Position numbers and translations under genes: made by a program. The notes under the pieces were generated by a model, which saw only the letters and a list, made by a program, of their open reading frames with translations, was not told the DNA's origin and made no database searches. A DNA stretch of 5,696 nt from a virus. Shown in pieces: positions 1 to 5,696 of this stretch (the stretch's first letter is position 1; each line of letters begins with the position of its first letter). Location of the stretch: positions 1-5,696 of the IMG/VR virus record IMGVR_UViG_3300045988_033111; one strand, 5' to 3'.

Positions 1-55
1 AAAAAGCCATTGCGTCCCTAATCGAAAGAAACGCGGAAACAGATAAGTCATACGC
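1..55. repeat. Terminal redundancy of a circular assembly. 1..55 is identical to 5642..5696, giving a unit length of 5641 nt.
   Basis: The string aaaaagccattgcgtccctaatcgaaagaaacgcggaaacagataagtcatacgc occurs at both ends. The rep reading frame continues in phase across the junction. Confidence 0.95.
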
Positions 56-122
56 AGAGCAGCTAAAGGACAAGGAAGCATCCATGTCCAAAAAGATGAG
101 CAAAGCCAAAGGTGTATTTTGA
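1..122 (+). CDS. VP4: C-terminal end of replication initiator VP4, continuing the ORF that starts at 4744. Codons are phased at 3, 6, 9 and so on, with stop TGA at 120..122.
   Basis: Position 1 equals 5642, which is codon position 2 of the 4744 frame. Translation reads (E)KAIASLIERNAETDKSYAEQLKDKEASMSKKMSKAKGVF*. The non-redundant join 4744..5641 plus 1..122 is 1020 nt, or 339 aa. Confidence 0.9.
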   Translation, partial: KAIASLIERNAETDKSYAEQLKDKEASMSKKMSKAKGVF

Positions 123-134
123 CACTTTGGTGTC
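121..134 (+). other. Small hairpin, gacac-tttg-gtgtc, overlapping the rep stop codon.
   Basis: Perfect 5-bp inverted repeat (121..125 with 130..134) and a 4-nt loop. Confidence 0.5.
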
Positions 135-184
135 ACTCAGCCAAGTAACTATCAAGTATGTTACTTGGCTGAGTATTTTATTTC
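135..184 (+). terminator. Intrinsic-terminator-like hairpin downstream of rep.
   Basis: Perfect 15-bp stem: actcagccaagtaac (135..149) pairs with gttacttggctgagt (160..174). The loop is 10 nt (tatcaagtat), followed by ATTTTATTT at 175..183. Confidence 0.65.
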
Positions 185-190
185 ATATTG

Positions 191-231
191 ACATGCGCGC
201 GCGCGCACGTAATCGCGCACGCACGCGCATG
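191..231. repeat. Alternating purine-pyrimidine CG/CA tract that is prone to Z-DNA or hairpin formation.
   Basis: 191..211 and 214..231 alternate R-Y perfectly and include (GC)6 at 195..206. The ends catgcgcg (192..199) and cgcgcatg (224..231) are inverted repeats, and gcgcg (201..205) can pair with cgcgc (214..218). The tract is a GC-only island in AT-rich flanks. Confidence 0.8.
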
Positions 232-287
232 AGATTATCATTATTTATTATTAACTTGTTGTAGTCGTAATAGTAGGGAGTGTTGAA

Positions 288-371
288 ATGTTGAATACCA
301 TGAATTTTTATCCTTGGAACGATATTTTCTGGATTATTTTGATGTTGATACTTTTGTGGATAACTTGTTGA
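288..371 (+). CDS. Candidate 27-aa hydrophobic peptide, MLNTMNFYPWNDIFWIILMLILLWITC. It is uncertain because it overlaps the repeat array.
   Basis: ATG at 288 is preceded by GGGAG (276..280) with a 7-nt spacer. Stop TGA is at 369..371. The C-terminal 14 residues are strongly hydrophobic. It falls below the size cut-off of the ORF track. Confidence 0.25.
   Translation: MLNTMNFYPWNDIFWIILMLILLWITC
355..363 (+). promoter_or_regulatory. Perfect consensus DnaA box, TGTGGATAA (TTATCCACA on the - strand).
   Basis: Exact 9/9 match at 355..363. Near-matches are TGTGGAAAA at 448..456 (8/9) and cGTGGAAAA at 419..427 (7/9). Confidence 0.5.
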
Positions 372-392
372 ATTGTTGAAAGTGTAGCAATA

Positions 393-412
393 TGCACAAA
401 ACCATTTGTGCA
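393..412. promoter_or_regulatory. Perfect palindrome TGCACAAA-N4-TTTGTGCA, either an operator-like site or an ssDNA hairpin.
   Basis: 8-bp arms at 393..400 and 405..412 with spacer acca. It lies between the two copies of the ~50-nt repeat. Confidence 0.6.
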
Positions 413-467
413 ACTTTTCGTGGAAAACCTGTTAAAAATGTTGAAAGTGTGGAAAAATCGAATTAAA

Positions 468-538
468 GGCCGTCCGACGAGCGAAACCGGAAGGTCTCGT
501 CATGCTCTTCGCACGGCGCACCGCGCCTACCGCATGAC
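468..538 (+). other. GC-rich structured island with nested hairpins, a candidate ssDNA structural element.
   Basis: Three stems: gacgag (476..481) with ctcgtc (496..501), tcatgc (500..505) with gcatga (532..537), and inner ggcgc (515..519) with gcgcc (523..527). There is an abrupt shift to high GC between AT-rich flanks, and no ORF longer than 11 codons. Confidence 0.45.
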
Positions 539-579
539 ATTCAAGGCAAAGTACATCTAAACTTTTTTTCAAAAACCTC

Positions 580-608
580 TTGACAAATAAGCAAAGTTGT
601 GGTATAAT
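580..608 (+). promoter_or_regulatory. Consensus sigma-70/sigma-A promoter with an extended -10.
   Basis: TTGACA (580..585), a 17-nt spacer, and TATAAT (603..608) preceded by TGg (600..602), giving TGnTATAAT. An A/T-rich UP-like tract, actttttttcaaaaacc, lies at 561..577. Confidence 0.8.
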
Positions 609-634
609 CCAATTAAAGAAAGGGGATAAAGACT

Positions 635-811
635 ATGGAAACTTTAAGAGCAACGTACAAAGACCTTGACACAGAGACCTTGAGATGGATGGACTACAAA
701 TTCAAGCACTGCAACAGCGATTGCGAAAAATGCCCATGTAACGACATAAGCTACCGTTGTGAATACATCCACGCGCTAGCAAAAGACGAACTAAACAGAA
801 GAGAAAAATAA
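635..811 (+). CDS. 58-aa Cys/His-rich small protein of unknown function, possibly zinc-binding.
   Basis: ATG at 635 is preceded by AGGGGA (621..626) with an 8-nt spacer. Sequence: METLRATYKDLDTETLRWMDYKFKHCNSDCEKCPCNDISYRCEYIHALAKDELNRREK, stop TAA at 809..811. The metal-ligand pattern is HC-x3-C-x2-C-x-C-x6-C-x3-H. The ORF is framed by a consensus promoter and a terminator, and is below the ORF-track size cut-off. Confidence 0.65.
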   Translation: METLRATYKDLDTETLRWMDYKFKHCNSDCEKCPCNDISYRCEYIHALAKDELNRREK

Positions 812-817
812 TTTCAG

Positions 818-847
818 AACAGGGCTTGACAAGCCCTGTTTTTTTTG
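818..847 (+). terminator. Rho-independent terminator after the 58-aa ORF.
   Basis: 9-bp stem acagggctt (819..827) with aagccctgt (831..839) and a short loop, followed by a T run extending to 846. Confidence 0.8.
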
Positions 848-889
848 ATACAACATAAATAGTTAGACAGCGGAAAGAGCTGTTTTACA

Positions 890-1039
890 ATGCCATTTAT
901 ACAAAATAACTTAAGAAAGAAGGTGTCTGCTCTGTCTATCAAGGAAATCGACGCGCTGTTTAACAACATCCGCAAAATCTTGGCCATGCTGGACAAGATT
1001 TATCACGCAATAGAGGGTAACAACAAACCCGAGGAGTGA
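890..1039 (+). CDS. Candidate 49-aa helical protein, MPFIQNNLRKKVSALSIKEIDALFNNIRKILAMLDKIYHAIEGNNKPEE.
   Basis: ATG at 890 has a weak SD (ggaaagag, 872..879). Stop TGA is at 1037..1039, and its last codons GAGGAG form the SD of the next ORF. It shares an in-phase 15-nt repeat with the next ORF. Caveat: a promoter-like TAGACA-N16-TACAAT at 864..891 overlaps its start codon. Confidence 0.4.
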   Translation: MPFIQNNLRKKVSALSIKEIDALFNNIRKILAMLDKIYHAIEGNNKPEE

Positions 1040-1044
1040 CAAAA

Positions 1045-1266
1045 GTGAAAACATGGAACGTAAGAGACCAGACCGATACGAAACTCATGGAGGAATTGAC
1101 GCGAACCTACAAGGAAATCGACGCCGCTTACAAACTGCTACGACAGGCCGCAAAGTACGACGACGCAAAGTTTTACCTTGACATGGTCTTCAGAAAAAAA
1201 GCAAAAGCGACAGAAATTGAGGTAGAAATCCTCAGAAGGGAAATCAACCATGGGAAAGAGGAGTAA
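1045..1266 (+). CDS. 73-aa charged helical protein of unknown function. The ORF track extends it to GTG 1036.
   Basis: GTG at 1045 lies 8 nt downstream of GAGGAG (1031..1036). Sequence: KTWNVRDQTDTKLMEELTRTYKEIDAAYKLLRQAAKYDDAKFYLDMVFRKKAKATEIEVEILRREINHGKEE. The stop ends at 1266, overlapping the next gene by 17 nt. Confidence 0.6.
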   Translation: MKTWNVRDQTDTKLMEELTRTYKEIDAAYKLLRQAAKYDDAKFYLDMVFRKKAKATEIEVEILRREINHGKEE

Positions 1267-1369
1267 AGTCCGCAAATCCAAAGACGCAAAAATTTACAAC
1301 AAGACCGCACGAAAAACCAAGGCCATCAACCTTGGGAGCGGCGCAATGAGAGGGGGAATCCGCCTGTGA
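1250..1369 (+). CDS. 39-aa highly basic DNA-binding/packaging peptide, J-like and ORF8-like as in gokushoviruses.
   Basis: Sequence MGKRSKVRKSKDAKIYNKTARKTKAINLGSGAMRGGIRL has 12 K/R in 39 aa and the C-terminal MRGGIRL ending typical of small basic microvirus peptides. SD-like aaggga lies upstream, and stop TGA is at 1367..1369. It is below the ORF-track cut-off. Confidence 0.75.
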   Translation: MGKRSKVRKSKDAKIYNKTARKTKAINLGSGAMRGGIRL

Positions 1370-1464
1370 GCGCTGTATTCGCAAGCATGACTATGGCATT
1401 TCTCGCAGCGGGGTTCTACCTCGTCATTAACGCAATCAACATCATCAAAGACTGGTTCGAATAA
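1366..1464 (+). CDS. 32-aa hydrophobic single-pass membrane peptide, (M)SAVFASMTMAFLAAGFYLVINAINIIKDWFE.
   Basis: GTG at 1366 overlaps the upstream stop (GTGA) and sits 8 nt after gagaggggga (1348..1357). In-frame ATGs occur at 1387 and 1393. Stop TAA at 1462..1464 overlaps the SD of the next gene. It fills an otherwise unexplained 106-nt gap in a compact genome. Confidence 0.5.
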   Translation: MSAVFASMTMAFLAAGFYLVINAINIIKDWFE

Positions 1465-1475
1465 GGAGAAAAAAC

Positions 1476-1712
1476 ATGAACGTATACGGAATTTTCGATA
1501 GCTGTGTGATGGGCTACATCACCATCTTCACCGAACGAGAAGACAAGGTGGCGGAGCGCAATTTTAAAATTGCGCTCACCGACGAACACAACATGATGAG
1601 CAAGACGCCGAGCGACTATCGACTGGTGCGACTGGCAAAATTCGACGAGAAAACGGGCCTGTTTGAGAACGAAAAGGAGAACATTTTCGATGGCGTATCG
1701 CTCAGTAAGTAA
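1476..1712 (+). CDS. VP5: 78-aa conserved Microviridae non-structural protein (VP5/ORF5-like).
   Basis: AGGAG (1464..1468) lies 7 nt before ATG 1476. The pattern YGIFD...ERNFKIAL...PSDYRLVRLAKFDEKTG resembles the YxIFD / DYxL..G.FD..TG layout of gokushovirus ORF5-type proteins. This is recognition from memory, not a search. Confidence 0.7.
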   Translation: MNVYGIFDSCVMGYITIFTEREDKVAERNFKIALTDEHNMMSKTPSDYRLVRLAKFDEKTGLFENEKENIFDGVSLSK

Positions 1713-2184
1713 TTTCCGAGAAACTGCAACAGCAAAGCCGACCGAGGCCGGGGAAACCGTGAGGCGCACATACCTCTGGGAGCGCAACGAAAAAGGCGAA
1801 AAGGTGCTGAGACTCGACCAGACCATTGACCAACAGGCAGAAATCGACAGCTATCTCGAGGAAACCAAACTTGAAAACATCATCCGACGAGCAAGCATCG
1901 ACCCGGACATTGCAGCACGTATCAAACCGGACATCGGGGGCGGCATCCAAGACTTCACCGAGGCGCCGCAGAATCTGGCCGAACTCCAGAACATCATGAT
2001 GCGAGCAGAGCAAATCTGGGACGAGGTGCCGAAAGAAATCAAGCTCAAGTTTGACAACGACGTGGACAAATTCATCGCAAGTTTTGGAACCGTCGAATGG
2101 GCCAAAAATCTGGGCATCTACCAAGAAAACCAGGTCGAAACCAAAGCAACTGAGGCAACGGAGGCAACGGAGGCCAAAGAATGA
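1690..2184 (+). CDS. VP3: Internal scaffolding protein VP3, 164 aa from ATG 1690. The ORF track starts it at TTG 1663.
   Basis: AGGAG (1675..1679) lies 10 nt before ATG 1690. The block QDFTEAPQNLAELQNIMMRAEQIWDEVPKEIKLKFDNDVDKFIA matches the conserved gokushovirus VP3 core. Stop TGA (2182..2184) overlaps the VP1 ATG as ATGA. Confidence 0.8.
   Translation: MAYRSVSNFRETATAKPTEAGETVRRTYLWERNEKGEKVLRLDQTIDQQAEIDSYLEETKLENIIRRASIDPDIAARIKPDIGGGIQDFTEAPQNLAELQNIMMRAEQIWDEVPKEIKLKFDNDVDKFIASFGTVEWAKNLGIYQENQVETKATEATEATEAKE
2149..2175 (+). repeat. 9-nt tandem repeat x3 (ACNGAGGCN) encoding TEA-TEA-TEA at the VP3 C-terminus.
   Basis: actgaggca acggaggca acggaggcc. The last unit supplies GGAGG (2169..2173), 7 nt upstream of the VP1 ATG. 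Confidence 0.85.
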
Positions 2185-3821
2185 ACAGAAACAAAGATGC
2201 AGGATTCAACCAGGTACCGCGCCTGGACATCACGCGAAGTCGATTCAAACGGCGGCAGGACGTCAAATTAACGCTAAATGCAGGACAACTTATTCCGTTC
2301 TATGTGGATGAAGTGCTCCCGGGTGACACCTTCAGTATTGACCAAGCGGCGATTATCCGCATGACGACGCCCATTTTTCCGGTCATGGATAACTGTCACA
2401 TGGACATTTATTATTTTAACGTCCCTTGCAGAATCCTATGGAAAAACTTCAAACGATTCATGGGCGAAAACAATACGGGGCCATGGACACAGACTCAGGA
2501 GTACTACATTCCGCAGGTCAGAGTAACCGGCACCGCAGAAAAACCGGCACCTTATGAGGGCAGCATCCTTGACTACATGGGTATTCCGACCAAGGTAAGC
2601 AAGGGAGAAGATACGGCATTCACTATCAACGCGCTGCCCATGAGGGCGTATGCTATGATATGGCAGGAGTGGTTCAGAGACCAAAACGTGGATAACCCGG
2701 CCATCAACAGCGATGCAGACGCGACTATAAACTACACGGACGACGAGACCAAGGGCATGGACGCGGCAAAGCCGGATTTGGAGTACATTCTCCAGAACGC
2801 GTACACAGGCGGCAGACCTCTTCCGGTCAACAAGTACCACGACTATTTCACATCGGCTTTACCGAATCCGCAGAAAGGCCCTTCAGTACAACTTCCGCTG
2901 GAAGGAAACGCTCCAATATTCGGATATTCAGACGTCAATCGAACAGAATTAAGTACCACCGGAGTGCTGCAAAAAATCGAAAACCAAACCAGACCTTTAG
3001 GCATTGTAGGATACACACCCAACCAGACAGAAATCTACTTAGGCGCAAGAATGGACAACGTAACATCGGCAACCATCAATCAGCTGAGGCAAGCATTTCA
3101 AGTACAAAAATACTACGAACAGCTAGCACGCGGCGGCTCTCGCTACCGTGAGATGGTTTACTCGCTGTTCCACACCAAAATCAGCGATAAAACGGTACAA
3201 ATCCCGGAGTATCTGGGTGGAACACGTATCACCATCAACATGAGTCAGGTCATCCAGACCAGCGGGACAACGACGGAAAGCCCGCAGGGCAACACTGCAG
3301 CAGTAAGCGTTACGCCGTACAACGGCAGTATGTTCACCAAGAGCTTTGAAGAACACGGCTTTGTTATCGGGGTGTGCTGCATCCGGCATGACCATACCTA
3401 CCAACAGGGCTTAGAGCGTATGTGGAGCCGAAAAACCAATCTGGATTTCTATTACCCGGTCTTCGCAAATCTGGGAGAGCAAGCAATTCTCAAGAAAGAA
3501 CTGTACCTCACCGGAACAGCAACGGATGAACAGGCATTCGGCTATCAAGAAGCTTGGGCTGAATACCGGATGAAACCGAACCGCATCAGCGGCAAATTCC
3601 GCAGCAACGCGACCGGGACGCTGGACAGTTGGCACTACGGAGACAACTACACGGAAACGCCGAGCTTAAGCCAGGCATGGATGAAAGAAGGAGACTCCGA
3701 AATTCAGCGGACTCTGGCAGTGGACAACGAACCGCAGTTTATCATGGACACCATCATCGACAACACCAGCGTCAGACCGATGCCCATGTACAGCATCCCG
3801 GGACTCGTTGACCATCACTAA
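2181..3821 (+). CDS. VP1: Major capsid protein VP1 (Microviridae F-type jelly-roll capsid), 546 aa.
   Basis: Full-length ORF with hallmark gokushovirus VP1 blocks: [107 protein letters not shown] and [13 protein letters not shown]. Confidence 0.95.
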
Positions 3822-3836
3822 ACAGGAAAGGGGGAA

Positions 3837-3865
3837 AGCCCGGGGCGACACCCCGGGCTATTTTT
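3837..3865 (+). terminator. GC-rich hairpin plus T tract between VP1 and VP2, a partial terminator or attenuator.
   Basis: 9-bp stem agcccgggg (3837..3845) with ccccgggct (3851..3859) and loop cgaca, then aTTTTT (3860..3865). The VP2 ATG follows immediately. Confidence 0.65.
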
Positions 3866-4744
3866 ATGGGACTCTTAACAACAATAGGATTACCACTGCT
3901 CAAAATGGCAATACCGAGCATTGCAGGAGCAGCAGCAAACAAGCTCTTTGGCACAAGCGGAAGCTACGGACAGCAAGGGCAATCTAACAGTCAAAGCAGC
4001 GGTTCCAGCTGGTCCCAAGGCACAAGCGACAGCGGAAGCACAAGCAGCGGAGGCACAAACGACGCTGTAAACAAAAGCATCGCAGCACTTGCAAACCAAC
4101 TAAGCCAAGGCAGCATGGCCGGACAGCAAAAATACAATCGCAATTCCATGCTTATGCAGATGGGTTATAATACCTTGTCGGCAATCCAGCAAGGCGTATA
4201 CAATCACATCGAGCAGCAAACAGCGATGAGCTACAACAGCGCCGAAGCCGCAAAAAACAGAGCATGGCAAGAGCAGATGAGTAACACATCCTACCAAAGA
4301 GCAGTCGAGGATATGAAAAAAGCTGGCATCAACCCTATCTTGGCATACACACAGGGCGGAGCAAGCACACCGAGCGGAGCGCAGGGAACAATCGGCAGCG
4401 CAAGCATGGGCATGGCATCCAGTAGCGCGCTGGGAGCAACGGCATTACCGGGCATCAAACAAGACGGCAGCTGGAGCCAACACAGCGAAGCATGGAGTCA
4501 TGCAGAAAACGCAGCACAGAGCATCCAGCAAGCTATCATGTCGAGCAGCACAAACCCTGTCAGACTCAGAGGAGACATGGAGCGCATTGCAGAGGCAGCA
4601 GCAGAAGGCGCGACGAACCTTAGAAAGACGATGGCAAGCGCACTCGCGAGCGACGAAGCAAAAGCCAACGCAAGAAACAGTCTCGAAAACATGAGAAGGA
4701 ACGGATTCACCGGCTACATGAGCATAAATCCGAGAGGTAAATAA
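3866..4744 (+). CDS. VP2: DNA pilot / minor capsid protein VP2, 292 aa.
   Basis: A hydrophobic N-terminus is followed by an S/G/Q-rich low-complexity segment (~3950..4070). The conserved block [24 protein letters not shown] is typical of gokushovirus VP2. Stop TAA (4742..4744) overlaps the rep ATG as TAATG. Confidence 0.85.
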
Positions 4745-5696
4745 TGGGATGCAATAAACCGCTAATCCGGTTTTATGTACCTCATGACAGAGAGGCGAGT
4801 GGGCGAGTGTACTCACTCGCCTCTTTTAACGAGATACACAAGACCAAAATGACGTACGAAAATTTAATGTACCGCAAAGATGTAATGTTGATACCATGCG
4901 GACAGTGTACAGGGTGCAGACTACGCAAACGCAAAGACTGGGCAACGCGGATGGAGCTGGAAGCATACGGCCACAGCAAAGAAAGCGTCTGGTTTATCAC
5001 GCTAACGTACGATGATGACCATGTACCAACGCAAGACACCGAAACAGGCGAAATCTACAAAGGTGGCATAAACATCTGGAAAGGCATCTCAGAGCGTCCA
5101 AGAACAACGCAAACGCTGAGCGTGGAGGATACCCAACTCTTCATCAAAAGGCTCAGAAAGGCCGTCAAAGAGCCTCTGAGATACTTTTTAGCCGGAGAGT
5201 ATGGAGACAACACGGCAAGACCACACTATCACATGATACTGTACGGGTGGCGTCCAGACGACTTAAAACCTATACACAAGCTATCCAGACACGGCCACTA
5301 CACAAGTGATAAGCTGGTCAAAATCTGGGGGCAAGGTGCAGTTGACATAGCACAGGCAACACCGGAGACATATAATTATGTTGCAGGATATGTAACCAAA
5401 AAGCTATACGGAAACGACAAAAAGCGTTACCAAAAAATGGGTTTAATACCTCCATTTTGCACAATGAGCCGAAAGCCGGGACTCGGAGACCAATGGTTTC
5501 AAGACCATCAAGAGCGACTCTGGCAACAGGGATACATACAGCTTACCAACGGCAAGAGAGCAGCCATCCCAGAATACTACTGGCGAAAACTGGAAGCGGA
5601 GAATCCTGAAAAAGCGTGGAGAATCAAACAGTATCGGCAAGAAAAAGCCATTGCGTCCCTAATCGAAAGAAACGCGGAAACAGATAAGTCATACGC
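4744..5696 (+). CDS. VP4: Replication initiator VP4 (HUH rolling-circle endonuclease). The ORF is open to the window end and continues at 1..122, 339 aa in total.
   Basis: GAGG (4734..4737) lies 6 nt before ATG 4744. Motifs: MGCNKPL start, CGQCTGCR, motif 1 FITLTY (4993..5010), HUH motif HYH (5224..5232) in RPHYHMILY, and the tyrosine motif Y-VAG-Y-VTKK (5377..5403). It has no stop inside the window, so it is absent from the ORF track. Confidence 0.92.
   Translation, partial: MGCNKPLIRFYVPHDREASGRVYSLASFNEIHKTKMTYENLMYRKDVMLIPCGQCTGCRLRKRKDWATRMELEAYGHSKESVWFITLTYDDDHVPTQDTETGEIYKGGINIWKGISERPRTTQTLSVEDTQLFIKRLRKAVKEPLRYFLAGEYGDNTARPHYHMILYGWRPDDLKPIHKLSRHGHYTSDKLVKIWGQGAVDIAQATPETYNYVAGYVTKKLYGNDKKRYQKMGLIPPFCTMSRKPGLGDQWFQDHQERLWQQGYIQLTNGKRAAIPEYYWRKLEAENPEKAWRIKQYRQEKAIASLIERNAETDKSY
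5642..5696. repeat. Second copy of the terminal redundancy, identical to 1..55.
   Basis: Exact 55-nt match to the window start. Confidence 0.95.

Follow-up and report, generated by a model that had tools for sequence, protein, structure and literature searches.

What does a short gene framed by its own promoter and terminator do upstream of the core genes of a microvirus? The question is raised by orf58, a 58-amino-acid (aa) open reading frame (ORF) in IMG/VR virus record IMGVR_UViG_3300045988_033111, of which positions 1 to 5,696 were analysed over their full length of 5,696 nucleotides (nt), called the window below. In tailed double-stranded DNA phages, an extra gene inserted between core genes together with its own promoter and terminator is known as a moron, in the sense of Hendrix and Juhala. 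The initial annotation of the window had described the locus as such a moron-like cassette, with a perfect extended -10 promoter behind an A/T-rich upstream (UP) tract, a single short ORF with a good Shine-Dalgarno (SD) sequence and a clean intrinsic terminator. Each of these elements was found in its place, and the comparison with related genomes upheld the cassette as a whole: the gene bears the marks of selection, is absent or replaced in the closest relatives and is bounded by a promoter and a covarying terminator. The preferred reading, with a probability of roughly 70% for the mechanism and the protein role taken jointly, is that positions 579-854 form an autonomous moron-type expression unit located 5' of the core promoter. 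The architecture of the unit and the accessory nature of orf58 are highly probable, and the functional class to which the protein is assigned is an even call.

The slot occupied by orf58 in related genomes

The virus is a gut gokushovirus, the nearest GenBank records being the faecal 'Gokushovirus WZ-2015a' genomes KT264788 and KT264789 (about 91% identity across 91% of the genome). The census of relatives was anchored on a conserved 38-nt hairpin (501-538) lying 40 nt 5' of the promoter of orf58, hereafter P1. This anchor retrieved 37 IMG/VR contigs and 29 metagenome contigs and gave, GenBank records included, 59 distinct sequences.

Between the window and its closest relatives, homology spans the promoter, stops at about position 622 and returns at about position 818, at the terminator. 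In KT264788, whose VP4 is 99% identical, an unrelated 65-aa ORF (family B) lies between the homologous promoter and terminator, with its stop codon within the terminator hairpin. KT264789 carries a deletion running from the promoter spacer into the family-B ORF, of which a remnant is left, while the insert in PV067914 is the degraded remainder of an ORF from a third family and ends in ...ALDPENW, which is the C-terminal signature of family C/D. The slot of a further genome (L011) is empty. At this one locus, relatives whose VP4 is 97-99% identical to that of the window are thus found with the gene absent or replaced, as in the case of a moron, and what they show is an empty slot, a remnant or an unrelated ORF. 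Pig microviruses, on the contrary, carry copies of orf58 that are 65% identical although the genomes otherwise barely align.

Over the 59 genomes, the slot holds ORFs of 55-65 aa belonging to at least seven unrelated families, either single or in two-gene arrays. Family C/D was found in 18 genomes, E in 14, B in 11, A (the family of orf58) in 8, F in 5, G in 3 and H in 1-2, and the two-gene arrays observed were C/D+E, F+A, G+B, F+B, B+F, C/D+H and G+H. No intact cassette ORF is left in 11 genomes, these having empty slots (L008, L011, L049), deletion remnants or a lost start codon. All cassette families are hydrophilic and lack a transmembrane segment, with grand average of hydropathicity (GRAVY) values from -0.3 to -1.1. 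Representatives of the families other than A gave no match in Pfam, PHROG or PADLOC, and those whose distribution was tested (A, B, C/D and E) occur in microvirus records alone. Intact A, B, C/D and E ORFs also occur in the GenBank records KT264788, KT264790, KT264798, MG945135/136/138/157/199/381/780 and MT135258, nearly all of them without an annotated feature under the match.

Relative to the window, clade-I genomes are 76-100% identical in VP1 and 83-100% in VP4, and clade-II genomes about 50% and 45% respectively. Families A, B, C/D, F and G are common to both clades, the cross-clade identity of the cassettes (up to 85% for B, 67% for A and 64% for C/D) being above that of the capsid and Rep. 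Within clade I, at a VP4 identity of 97% or more, the content of the slot ranges from A or B through remnants of B or C/D to nothing at all. Two clade-I genomes (L040 and L044) have a clade-II-type promoter (TTGACT...TAGAAT) along with F and G cassettes. In the most divergent family-A members (P0016, P0018 and P0019) the gene is the first past the post-Rep non-coding region and has a P1-like promoter ahead of it. Since cassette type departs from the core phylogeny, and in view of the promoters of L040 and L044 and of the position of the divergent family-A genes, these comparisons indicate that cassettes are gained, lost, exchanged and paired by recombination among co-circulating microviruses, sometimes together with the promoter.

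Transcription signals on both sides of orf58

P1 (Table 1) scores 12/12, carries the extended -10 TG in addition and is the top-scoring site of the genome; its exact pattern is unique within the window, and 0 of 200 dinucleotide-preserving shuffles contain it. Transcription is predicted to start near position 615. After the anchor, a P1-type promoter scoring at least 10/12 is present in 53 of the 59 distinct related genomes (perfect in 25, with the TG in 52), and in most of them the -35 hexamer is preceded by a TTTCAAAAA(A)C-type tract. Related genomes also keep, 5' of the first ORF, a purine-rich leader of the AGAAAGG type.

The terminator begins 6 nt past the stop codon of orf58. Its RNA fold has an energy of -16.4 kcal/mol (z = -4.39), a stability reached by 0 of 200 shuffles. 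In 14 distinct versions of the element from relatives, 93.6% of cells are paired and 4 pairs are altered on both sides, the observed covariation score being reached by 0 of 500 shuffles; the lower stem reads CAGGGC, GAGGG, GAGGC, GGGGC or TAGGC, with pairing retained. At the level of the sequence, orf58 thus has both a promoter and a terminator of its own.

The same hairpin carries at its tip the -35 hexamer of a second putative promoter, P2. TTGAC is unchanged in all 14 terminator versions, and a TAnAnn hexamer always follows 15-18 nt further 3'. This terminator/P2 element is found after cassette remnants and after arrays whose last gene belongs to family A, B, F or H. In genomes with an empty slot (L008, L011, L049) or a remnant (L012/L077, L002, L042), P1 is absent or destroyed and the sole promoter-like site 5' of the core genes is of the P2 type; provided that these genomes are viable, P2 must therefore be functional. 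Each genome has at least one of P1 and P2, and the window has both, with the cassette in between. Because P2 is the only promoter in genomes without a cassette, the P1-orf58-terminator segment is best described as an add-on, predicted to be autonomous, that precedes the core promoter. The cassette is flanked by the two copies of an 8-nt direct repeat, CTTGACAA; a deletion between them would leave a single promoter, matching the empty-slot genomes.

The conserved core leader forms the downstream boundary of the slot and is kept in both clades as AGTTAAACAGCAC...GTGCT. It starts 6 nt past the -10 of P2 and would therefore be the 5' end of the P2 transcript. Its hairpin (865-885) has a folding energy of -10 kcal/mol (z = -4.35). 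Beyond it, the conserved part of the first core ORF has an apparent non-ATG start, CTG at 932 (TTG in L049), 6-7 nt after a AGGAGGTG-type SD, the conserved leader spanning 861-934; the ATG of the window at 890 is not conserved in relatives.

In the mechanism proposed, the incoming single-stranded DNA would be converted to the double-stranded form, after which the host housekeeping RNA polymerase would fire P1, and the short leader together with the strong SD would result in high early synthesis of the 58-aa protein. The intrinsic terminator would end most P1 transcripts, at 840-847, whereas its tip and 3' side would act as P2, which plus read-through would supply the core genes from orf49 through VP1. 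Since the terminator would stop P1 transcripts and P2 would feed the core genes, the dosage of the cassette would be insulated from that of the core genes.

Several observations weigh against the preferred reading, and part of them favour an alternative in which P1 acts as the genome's main promoter, with the hairpin as an attenuator, orf58 being then the first cistron of a core operon expressed through read-through. The P2 -10 of the window, TACAAC, is without the conserved final T and weak by consensus; the core genes may thus rely mainly on P1 read-through, which would make the unit less autonomous. Furthermore, clade-I family-D and pig-clade family-A genomes have P1 without the terminator/P2 element, and since the following gene adjoins or overlaps the stop codon of their cassette and P2 is missing, P1 would drive everything in these genomes. 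The 53 genomes with P1 have it irrespective of their cassette. In addition, the P1 spacer and leader track cassette type weakly (medians of 71-72% versus 65-67%). P1 has the housekeeping sigma-70/sigma-A extended -10 pattern (TTGACA, 17 +/- 1 nt, TGnTATAAT), but its fit to the host polymerase is assumed. Finally, no known structural analogue of orf58 was found in Foldseek searches of PDB and BFVD.

The alternative of a single main promoter is nevertheless unlikely. The empty-slot and remnant genomes listed above retain only a P2-type promoter, and the TTGAC of the tip and the -10-like hexamer 15-18 nt away are kept while the stem around them covaries. Moreover, this alternative touches only the supply of transcripts to the core genes and leaves the swappable, accessory nature of the cassette unaffected. 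The autonomous unit is therefore kept as the preferred reading, with full insulation of the cassette predicted to be limited to the lineage of the window and to the others that have the terminator/P2 element.

The orf58 protein

Pairwise comparison of codon alignments taken from the loci gave ratios of nonsynonymous to synonymous divergence (dN/dS) of 0.05-0.25 for divergent pairs, and in L045 the protein is identical although 25% of the synonymous sites differ (pS 0.25). On these grounds orf58 is a real coding gene under purifying selection. Its GC content is 41.2%, compared with 48.2% for the genome and 50.5% for VP1, and is close to that of the adjoining non-coding region (38.9%) and of the small core ORFs (43.2%).

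Sequence and profile searches retrieved homologues in 20 clusters, with 36-97% identity and lengths of about 54-64 aa, bar one probably called too long; the contigs that carry them are all of at most about 5.9 kb. When 1.84 billion representative proteins were searched with a profile and without filters, just 15 related clusters came up, of which 12 are small proteins of the orf58 kind and 3 are long repetitive proteins whose match is confined to the Cys stretch. Family A has no relative in 185,579 bacterial and archaeal species genomes, where a search for the host with the family-A profile and with VP1 came back empty for both, and none in non-microvirus phage records.

The initial annotation had drawn attention to an HC-x3-C-x2-C-x-C-x6-C-x3-H pattern suggestive of metal binding. 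The pattern is literally there (H25, C26, C30, C33, C35, C42 and H46), but only its four-Cys part withstood comparison. C26, C30, C33 and C42 are invariant across about 30 sequences, down to 36% identity and including A2, A3 and more distant members, whereas both His and C35 are dispensable: H25 is replaced by Ser or Asn in some members, H46 by Tyr or Asn in others and C35 by Asn, Phe or Tyr in several. The conserved signature of family A is thus C-x3-C-x2-C-x8-C, the further invariant positions being L16, E52 and R56.

The protein is hydrophilic (GRAVY -1.11) without any hydrophobic stretch, and has a net charge of about -1 and an isoelectric point of 6.1; a basic surface is not evident from the sequence. 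With the family alignment as input, AlphaFold2 gave a four-helix mini-domain (predicted local distance difference test 80, predicted template modelling score 0.64) with the Cys residues in the turn between helices 2 and 4. Scans of Pfam, PHROG and PADLOC with orf58 and all 20 aligned family members gave no significant match, and in Pfam and PHROG orf58 is without a profile match to the known Microviridae core proteins (VP1-VP5, VP8/J), so that the first impression of a protein unlike those of Microviridae stood. In PDB, a sequence profile search picked up nothing beyond a Kunitz-type seed protein of plants, at a chance level (E about 1); this match is probably the source of the spurious name 'trypsin inhibitor' given to P0004. 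Foldseek against PDB gave no fold match for the orf58 model (best E = 3.1), and against BFVD the sole near-significant neighbour was another microvirus ORFan, of 66 aa (E = 0.026). Neither profile nor structure-prediction searches thus led to a known family or fold.

The four invariant Cys residues are of the metal-ligand type expected of a Cys4 zinc mini-domain (ribbon, knuckle or treble clef); paired CxxC knuckles and a structural match to any such known fold are absent. The model and the conservation pattern suggest a small helical domain held by a four-Cys metal site, in which the metal would probably be Zn by analogy. A radical-SAM identity is not supported. The CX3CX2C motif of radical-SAM and [4Fe-4S] proteins is there, but in a protein of 58 aa without a Pfam radical-SAM match, and the JGI label 'polyferredoxin' on P0018 is unsupported by any domain match.

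Possible role of orf58

The most likely role of orf58 would be the binding of a host or competitor protein, in counter-defence, host takeover or superinfection exclusion. A role in protein binding is favoured over the regulation of viral DNA because orf58 is not basic, and a host or competitor target because the locus resembles an accessory region, holds small, mostly acidic or neutral proteins, would be the first transcribed and shows rapid turnover. No cassette family has homology to known anti-defence proteins in PHROG or Pfam, the searches having included no dedicated anti-CRISPR (Acr) library. A broader view is offered tentatively, at somewhat worse than even odds: gut gokushoviruses would keep, in a promoter-proximal slot insulated by the fused terminator and promoter, a private, recombining pool of mini-proteins, of at least seven families, as factors of counter-defence or of competition between viruses, with family A as a new class of metal-dependent inhibitor.

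That orf58 is instead a viral regulator binding the upstream iterons, the GC palindrome or the conserved hairpin, one of the roles put forward in the initial annotation, is very unlikely. The gene adjoins the non-coding control region, and Cys4 modules are generally frequent in nucleic-acid-binding proteins. However, the hairpin and the iteron-type region are kept in genomes that lack orf58 or carry unrelated cassettes, the charge of the protein speaks against it, and a regulator of core elements should not be dispensable among relatives 97-99% identical in Rep.

It is likewise highly improbable that the cassette proteins are the missing single-gene lysis factors of gokushoviruses. These viruses have no recognised lysis gene, and in small phages that rely on a single gene for lysis, the proteins concerned are short and diverse. 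Peptidases are listed only in other microvirus families (PMC9239249). On the other side, no cassette family has a hydrophobic segment, genomes with empty slots occur although lysis should be essential, and a conserved transmembrane ORF of 32-38 aa (1366-1464) is a better lysis candidate. An E-like lysis protein in particular was rejected in view of the empty slots and of the lack of a transmembrane segment.

Finally, a functional small RNA of about 230 nt running from promoter to terminator, with the ORF incidental, is scarcely credible: the transcript would be compact and terminator-bounded, and Rfam gives a sub-threshold match to the terminator-like STnc320 on the opposite strand (E = 0.8), but there is no Rfam family match, dN/dS speaks for selection on the protein, the Cys residues are invariant in homologues whose DNA has diverged past alignment, the SD is strong and conserved, and the disrupted ORFs in relatives that would have suggested an RNA were not seen, family A being intact in every homologue seen and the relatives showing replacement rather than decay. 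Binding of a host or competitor protein thus remains the preferred role.

Other features of the genome

The window is one complete gokushovirus genome, circular and 5641 nt long; its ends are redundant over 55 nt, since positions 1-55 recur at 5642-5696, and all its genes are on the + strand (Table 1). Genes other than orf58 match Phage_F, Chlamy_scaf, Phage_ORF5, pilot-protein PHROGs and phrog_10695 in Pfam and PHROG scans; neither an integrase nor a repressor is present.

Table 1. Coordinates of the orf58 cassette and of the genes and regions around it in the window.
Feature	Positions	Strand	Details	Basis
Non-coding region	123-634			
UP-like A/T-rich tract	559-577	+	AAACTTTTTTTCAAAAACC, immediately 5' of the P1 -35	Read from sequence
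Direct repeat, left copy	579-586	+	CTTGACAA, 8 nt	
Promoter P1	580-608	+	TTGACA 580-585, 17-nt spacer, TG 600-601, TATAAT 603-608 (TGgTATAAT 600-608)	
Shine-Dalgarno	619-627	+	AAAGGGGAT, 7 nt 5' of the ATG at 635	Read from sequence
orf58 (family A)	635-811	+	58 aa, TAA stop 809-811	ORF list
Intrinsic terminator	817-846	+	12-bp stem, arms 817-828 and 830-841, U8 839-846	
Direct repeat, right copy	825-832	+	CTTGACAA, 8 nt	
Putative promoter P2	826-854	+	TTGACA 826-831 at hairpin tip, 17-nt spacer, TGa 846-848, TACAAC 849-854	
Conserved core leader start	861-885	+	AGTTAGACAGC..., small hairpin; downstream slot boundary	Comparison
Small conserved ORFs	890-1464	+		
VP5	1476-1712	+		
VP3	end at 2184	+		
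VP1	2181-3821	+		
VP2	3866-4744	+		
Rep/VP4	4744 through junction to 122	+		

The non-coding region contains several further elements. At 135-174, 13 nt beyond the stop codon of Rep (VP4), lies an inverted repeat of 15 perfectly paired bp, with AUUUUAUUU after it; its RNA fold of -25.2 kcal/mol (z = -5.65) was missed by a simple terminator scan, and it is probably the terminator closing the VP2-VP4 transcription unit. An imperfect palindrome of alternating CG-rich sequence (CATGCGCGCGCGCGCACG...CGCGCACGCACGCGCATG) lies at 185-238, where the fold is no better than that of shuffles (z = -1.0) and a sub-threshold Rfam match to tpke11 is found on the minus strand (28.8 bits versus a gathering score of 43, E = 0.004). 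Iterons of the TGTTGAAA(G/A)TGT type recur from about 280 to 460 and are candidates for origin repeats or for binding sites of Rep, and similar TGTTGAAAA repeats are found in relatives and at the junction between virus and conjugative element in OGYO01000869.

The hairpin at 499-538 (GTCATGC...GCATGAC around GGCGC-ACC-GCGCC), 40 nt 5' of P1, is nearly identical in two clades whose Rep and capsid are just 45-50% identical, and L082 shows compensatory changes in its outer stem (GTCACGC...GCGTGAC). By folding energy alone, the hairpin does not stand out (DNA z = -1.5). It could be a signal for replication, complementary-strand synthesis or recombination.

Downstream, the 32-aa ORF at 1366-1464 encodes one hydrophobic helix (MSAVFASMTMAFLAAGFYLVINAINIIKDWFE) and has a 38-aa hydrophobic counterpart at the equivalent position in KT264788, KT264789 and PV067914, which makes it a better candidate for a gokushovirus lysis or membrane factor than the cassette proteins. 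Between VP1 and VP2, a strong terminator-like hairpin (3837-3859; 9 bp, of which 8 are G-C pairs) is followed by AUUUUUAU, and lower transcription of VP2/VP4 than of the capsid genes would therefore be implied, as in dosage control of the phiX174 type. VP2 is mosaic: among genomes with Rep at least 96% identical it is either 91-98% or about 50-67% identical, which recalls the hypervariable pilot-protein regions of other microviruses.

The only hint at a host comes from OGYO01000869.1 (L053 + L067; 16,174 nt), in which a clade-II relative, present as about 1.16 genome units, adjoins some 10 kb of Clostridia-type sequence with topoisomerase III, a CD1107-like protein, NlpC/P60, a VirB4/TraG-like ATPase and TrbL/VirB6, the sole plasmid match being to a Subdoligranulum variabile plasmid at 71% identity. 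This contig is either a microvirus integrated or captured in a Clostridia conjugative element or a chimeric assembly; the latter is considered because there is one junction only and the overlapping viral copies are 86% identical.

Significance

Microviruses are among the most abundant phages of the human gut, and their genomes of about 5 kb are viewed as nearly accessory-free (PMC9239249). The slot described here is a defined hotspot for small genes, which come and go there, replace one another and are stacked, each with the signals needed for strong early expression. It offers a short list of compact candidates of 55-65 aa for host-takeover, anti-defence or exclusion functions, none being known in this phage family. 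Since microvirus genomes can be synthesised and the cassettes exchanged, these candidates are directly testable (approach in PMC7062461). A terminator serving as a promoter would moreover allow a highly expressed gene to be added to a capsid-limited genome with core dosage undisturbed. Should the cassettes prove to be an anti-defence pool, these would be the smallest phages known to have an exchangeable anti-defence arsenal.

Comparison with known systems

No description of this slot was found in the searchable literature, which is itself incomplete. Hypervariable regions have been described in microviruses inside VP1 and the VP2 pilot protein (PMC7062461, PMC9239249), and very limited accessory repertoires with little gene exchange have been reported for these viruses (PMC9239249). 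The concept of phage accessory regions, with counter-defence hotspots and anti-CRISPR loci, has been set out elsewhere (bioRxiv 10.1101/2023.04.06.535777), as has the regulatory-sequence logic of such loci (PMC11065993). Like counter-defence hotspots, the slot is fixed between conserved flanks and holds small, variable, mostly acidic or neutral proteins of fast turnover behind a predicted strong early promoter. Unlike anti-CRISPR loci, it is adjoined by no aca-like helix-turn-helix regulator, the downstream genes being conserved core ORFs, and insulation would come from a terminator instead of a repressor.

Integrons offer a functional analogy only, in that one or two short ORFs, interchangeable and each having its own SD, follow a conserved promoter; unlike integrons, the slot is without an integrase or attC-like sites, and exchange apparently proceeds via the homology of the conserved flanks. 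In phiX174-type microviruses, constitutive sigma-70 promoters and leaky intrinsic terminators set gene dosage. The window resembles these viruses in having promoters of the host-polymerase type and hairpin/U-tract terminators on a single coding strand, but there the signals partition core genes, whereas here they enclose a dispensable gene, one terminator being fused to a promoter.

As Kirchberger and colleagues are said to have described in PNAS in 2021 (cited in PMC9239249), the hypervariable region of the DNA pilot protein confers superinfection exclusion in microviruses. Both that region and the slot are rapidly diversifying microvirus modules thought to be driven by virus-virus conflict, and the VP2 of the window's own group is mosaic (98% versus about 50% at nearly identical Rep). 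The pilot-protein region lies within a structural gene, in temperate microviruses, whereas the slot is a separate array of small genes at a promoter, with signals of its own.

The closest parallel remains the moron of tailed phages. As with morons, the orf58 unit is a promoter-ORF-terminator segment between conserved genes that is present, absent or replaced in near-identical genomes, and it is dispensable and shared between lineages by recombination. It differs in its carrier, a 5.6-kb single-stranded DNA microvirus with no sign of lysogeny and thus no benefit to a lysogen from prophage expression, in its terminator, which also holds the core promoter, and in its content, the slot holding interchangeable microvirus-only ORFans in place of genes captured from a host. 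The transcription signals are textbook ones, and it is the carrier, the organisation and the content that are unusual. What stands out is a set of at least seven ORFan families private to these viruses, arranged in one- or two-gene arrays in a promoter-proximal slot and closed by a putative insulator in which terminator and promoter are fused.

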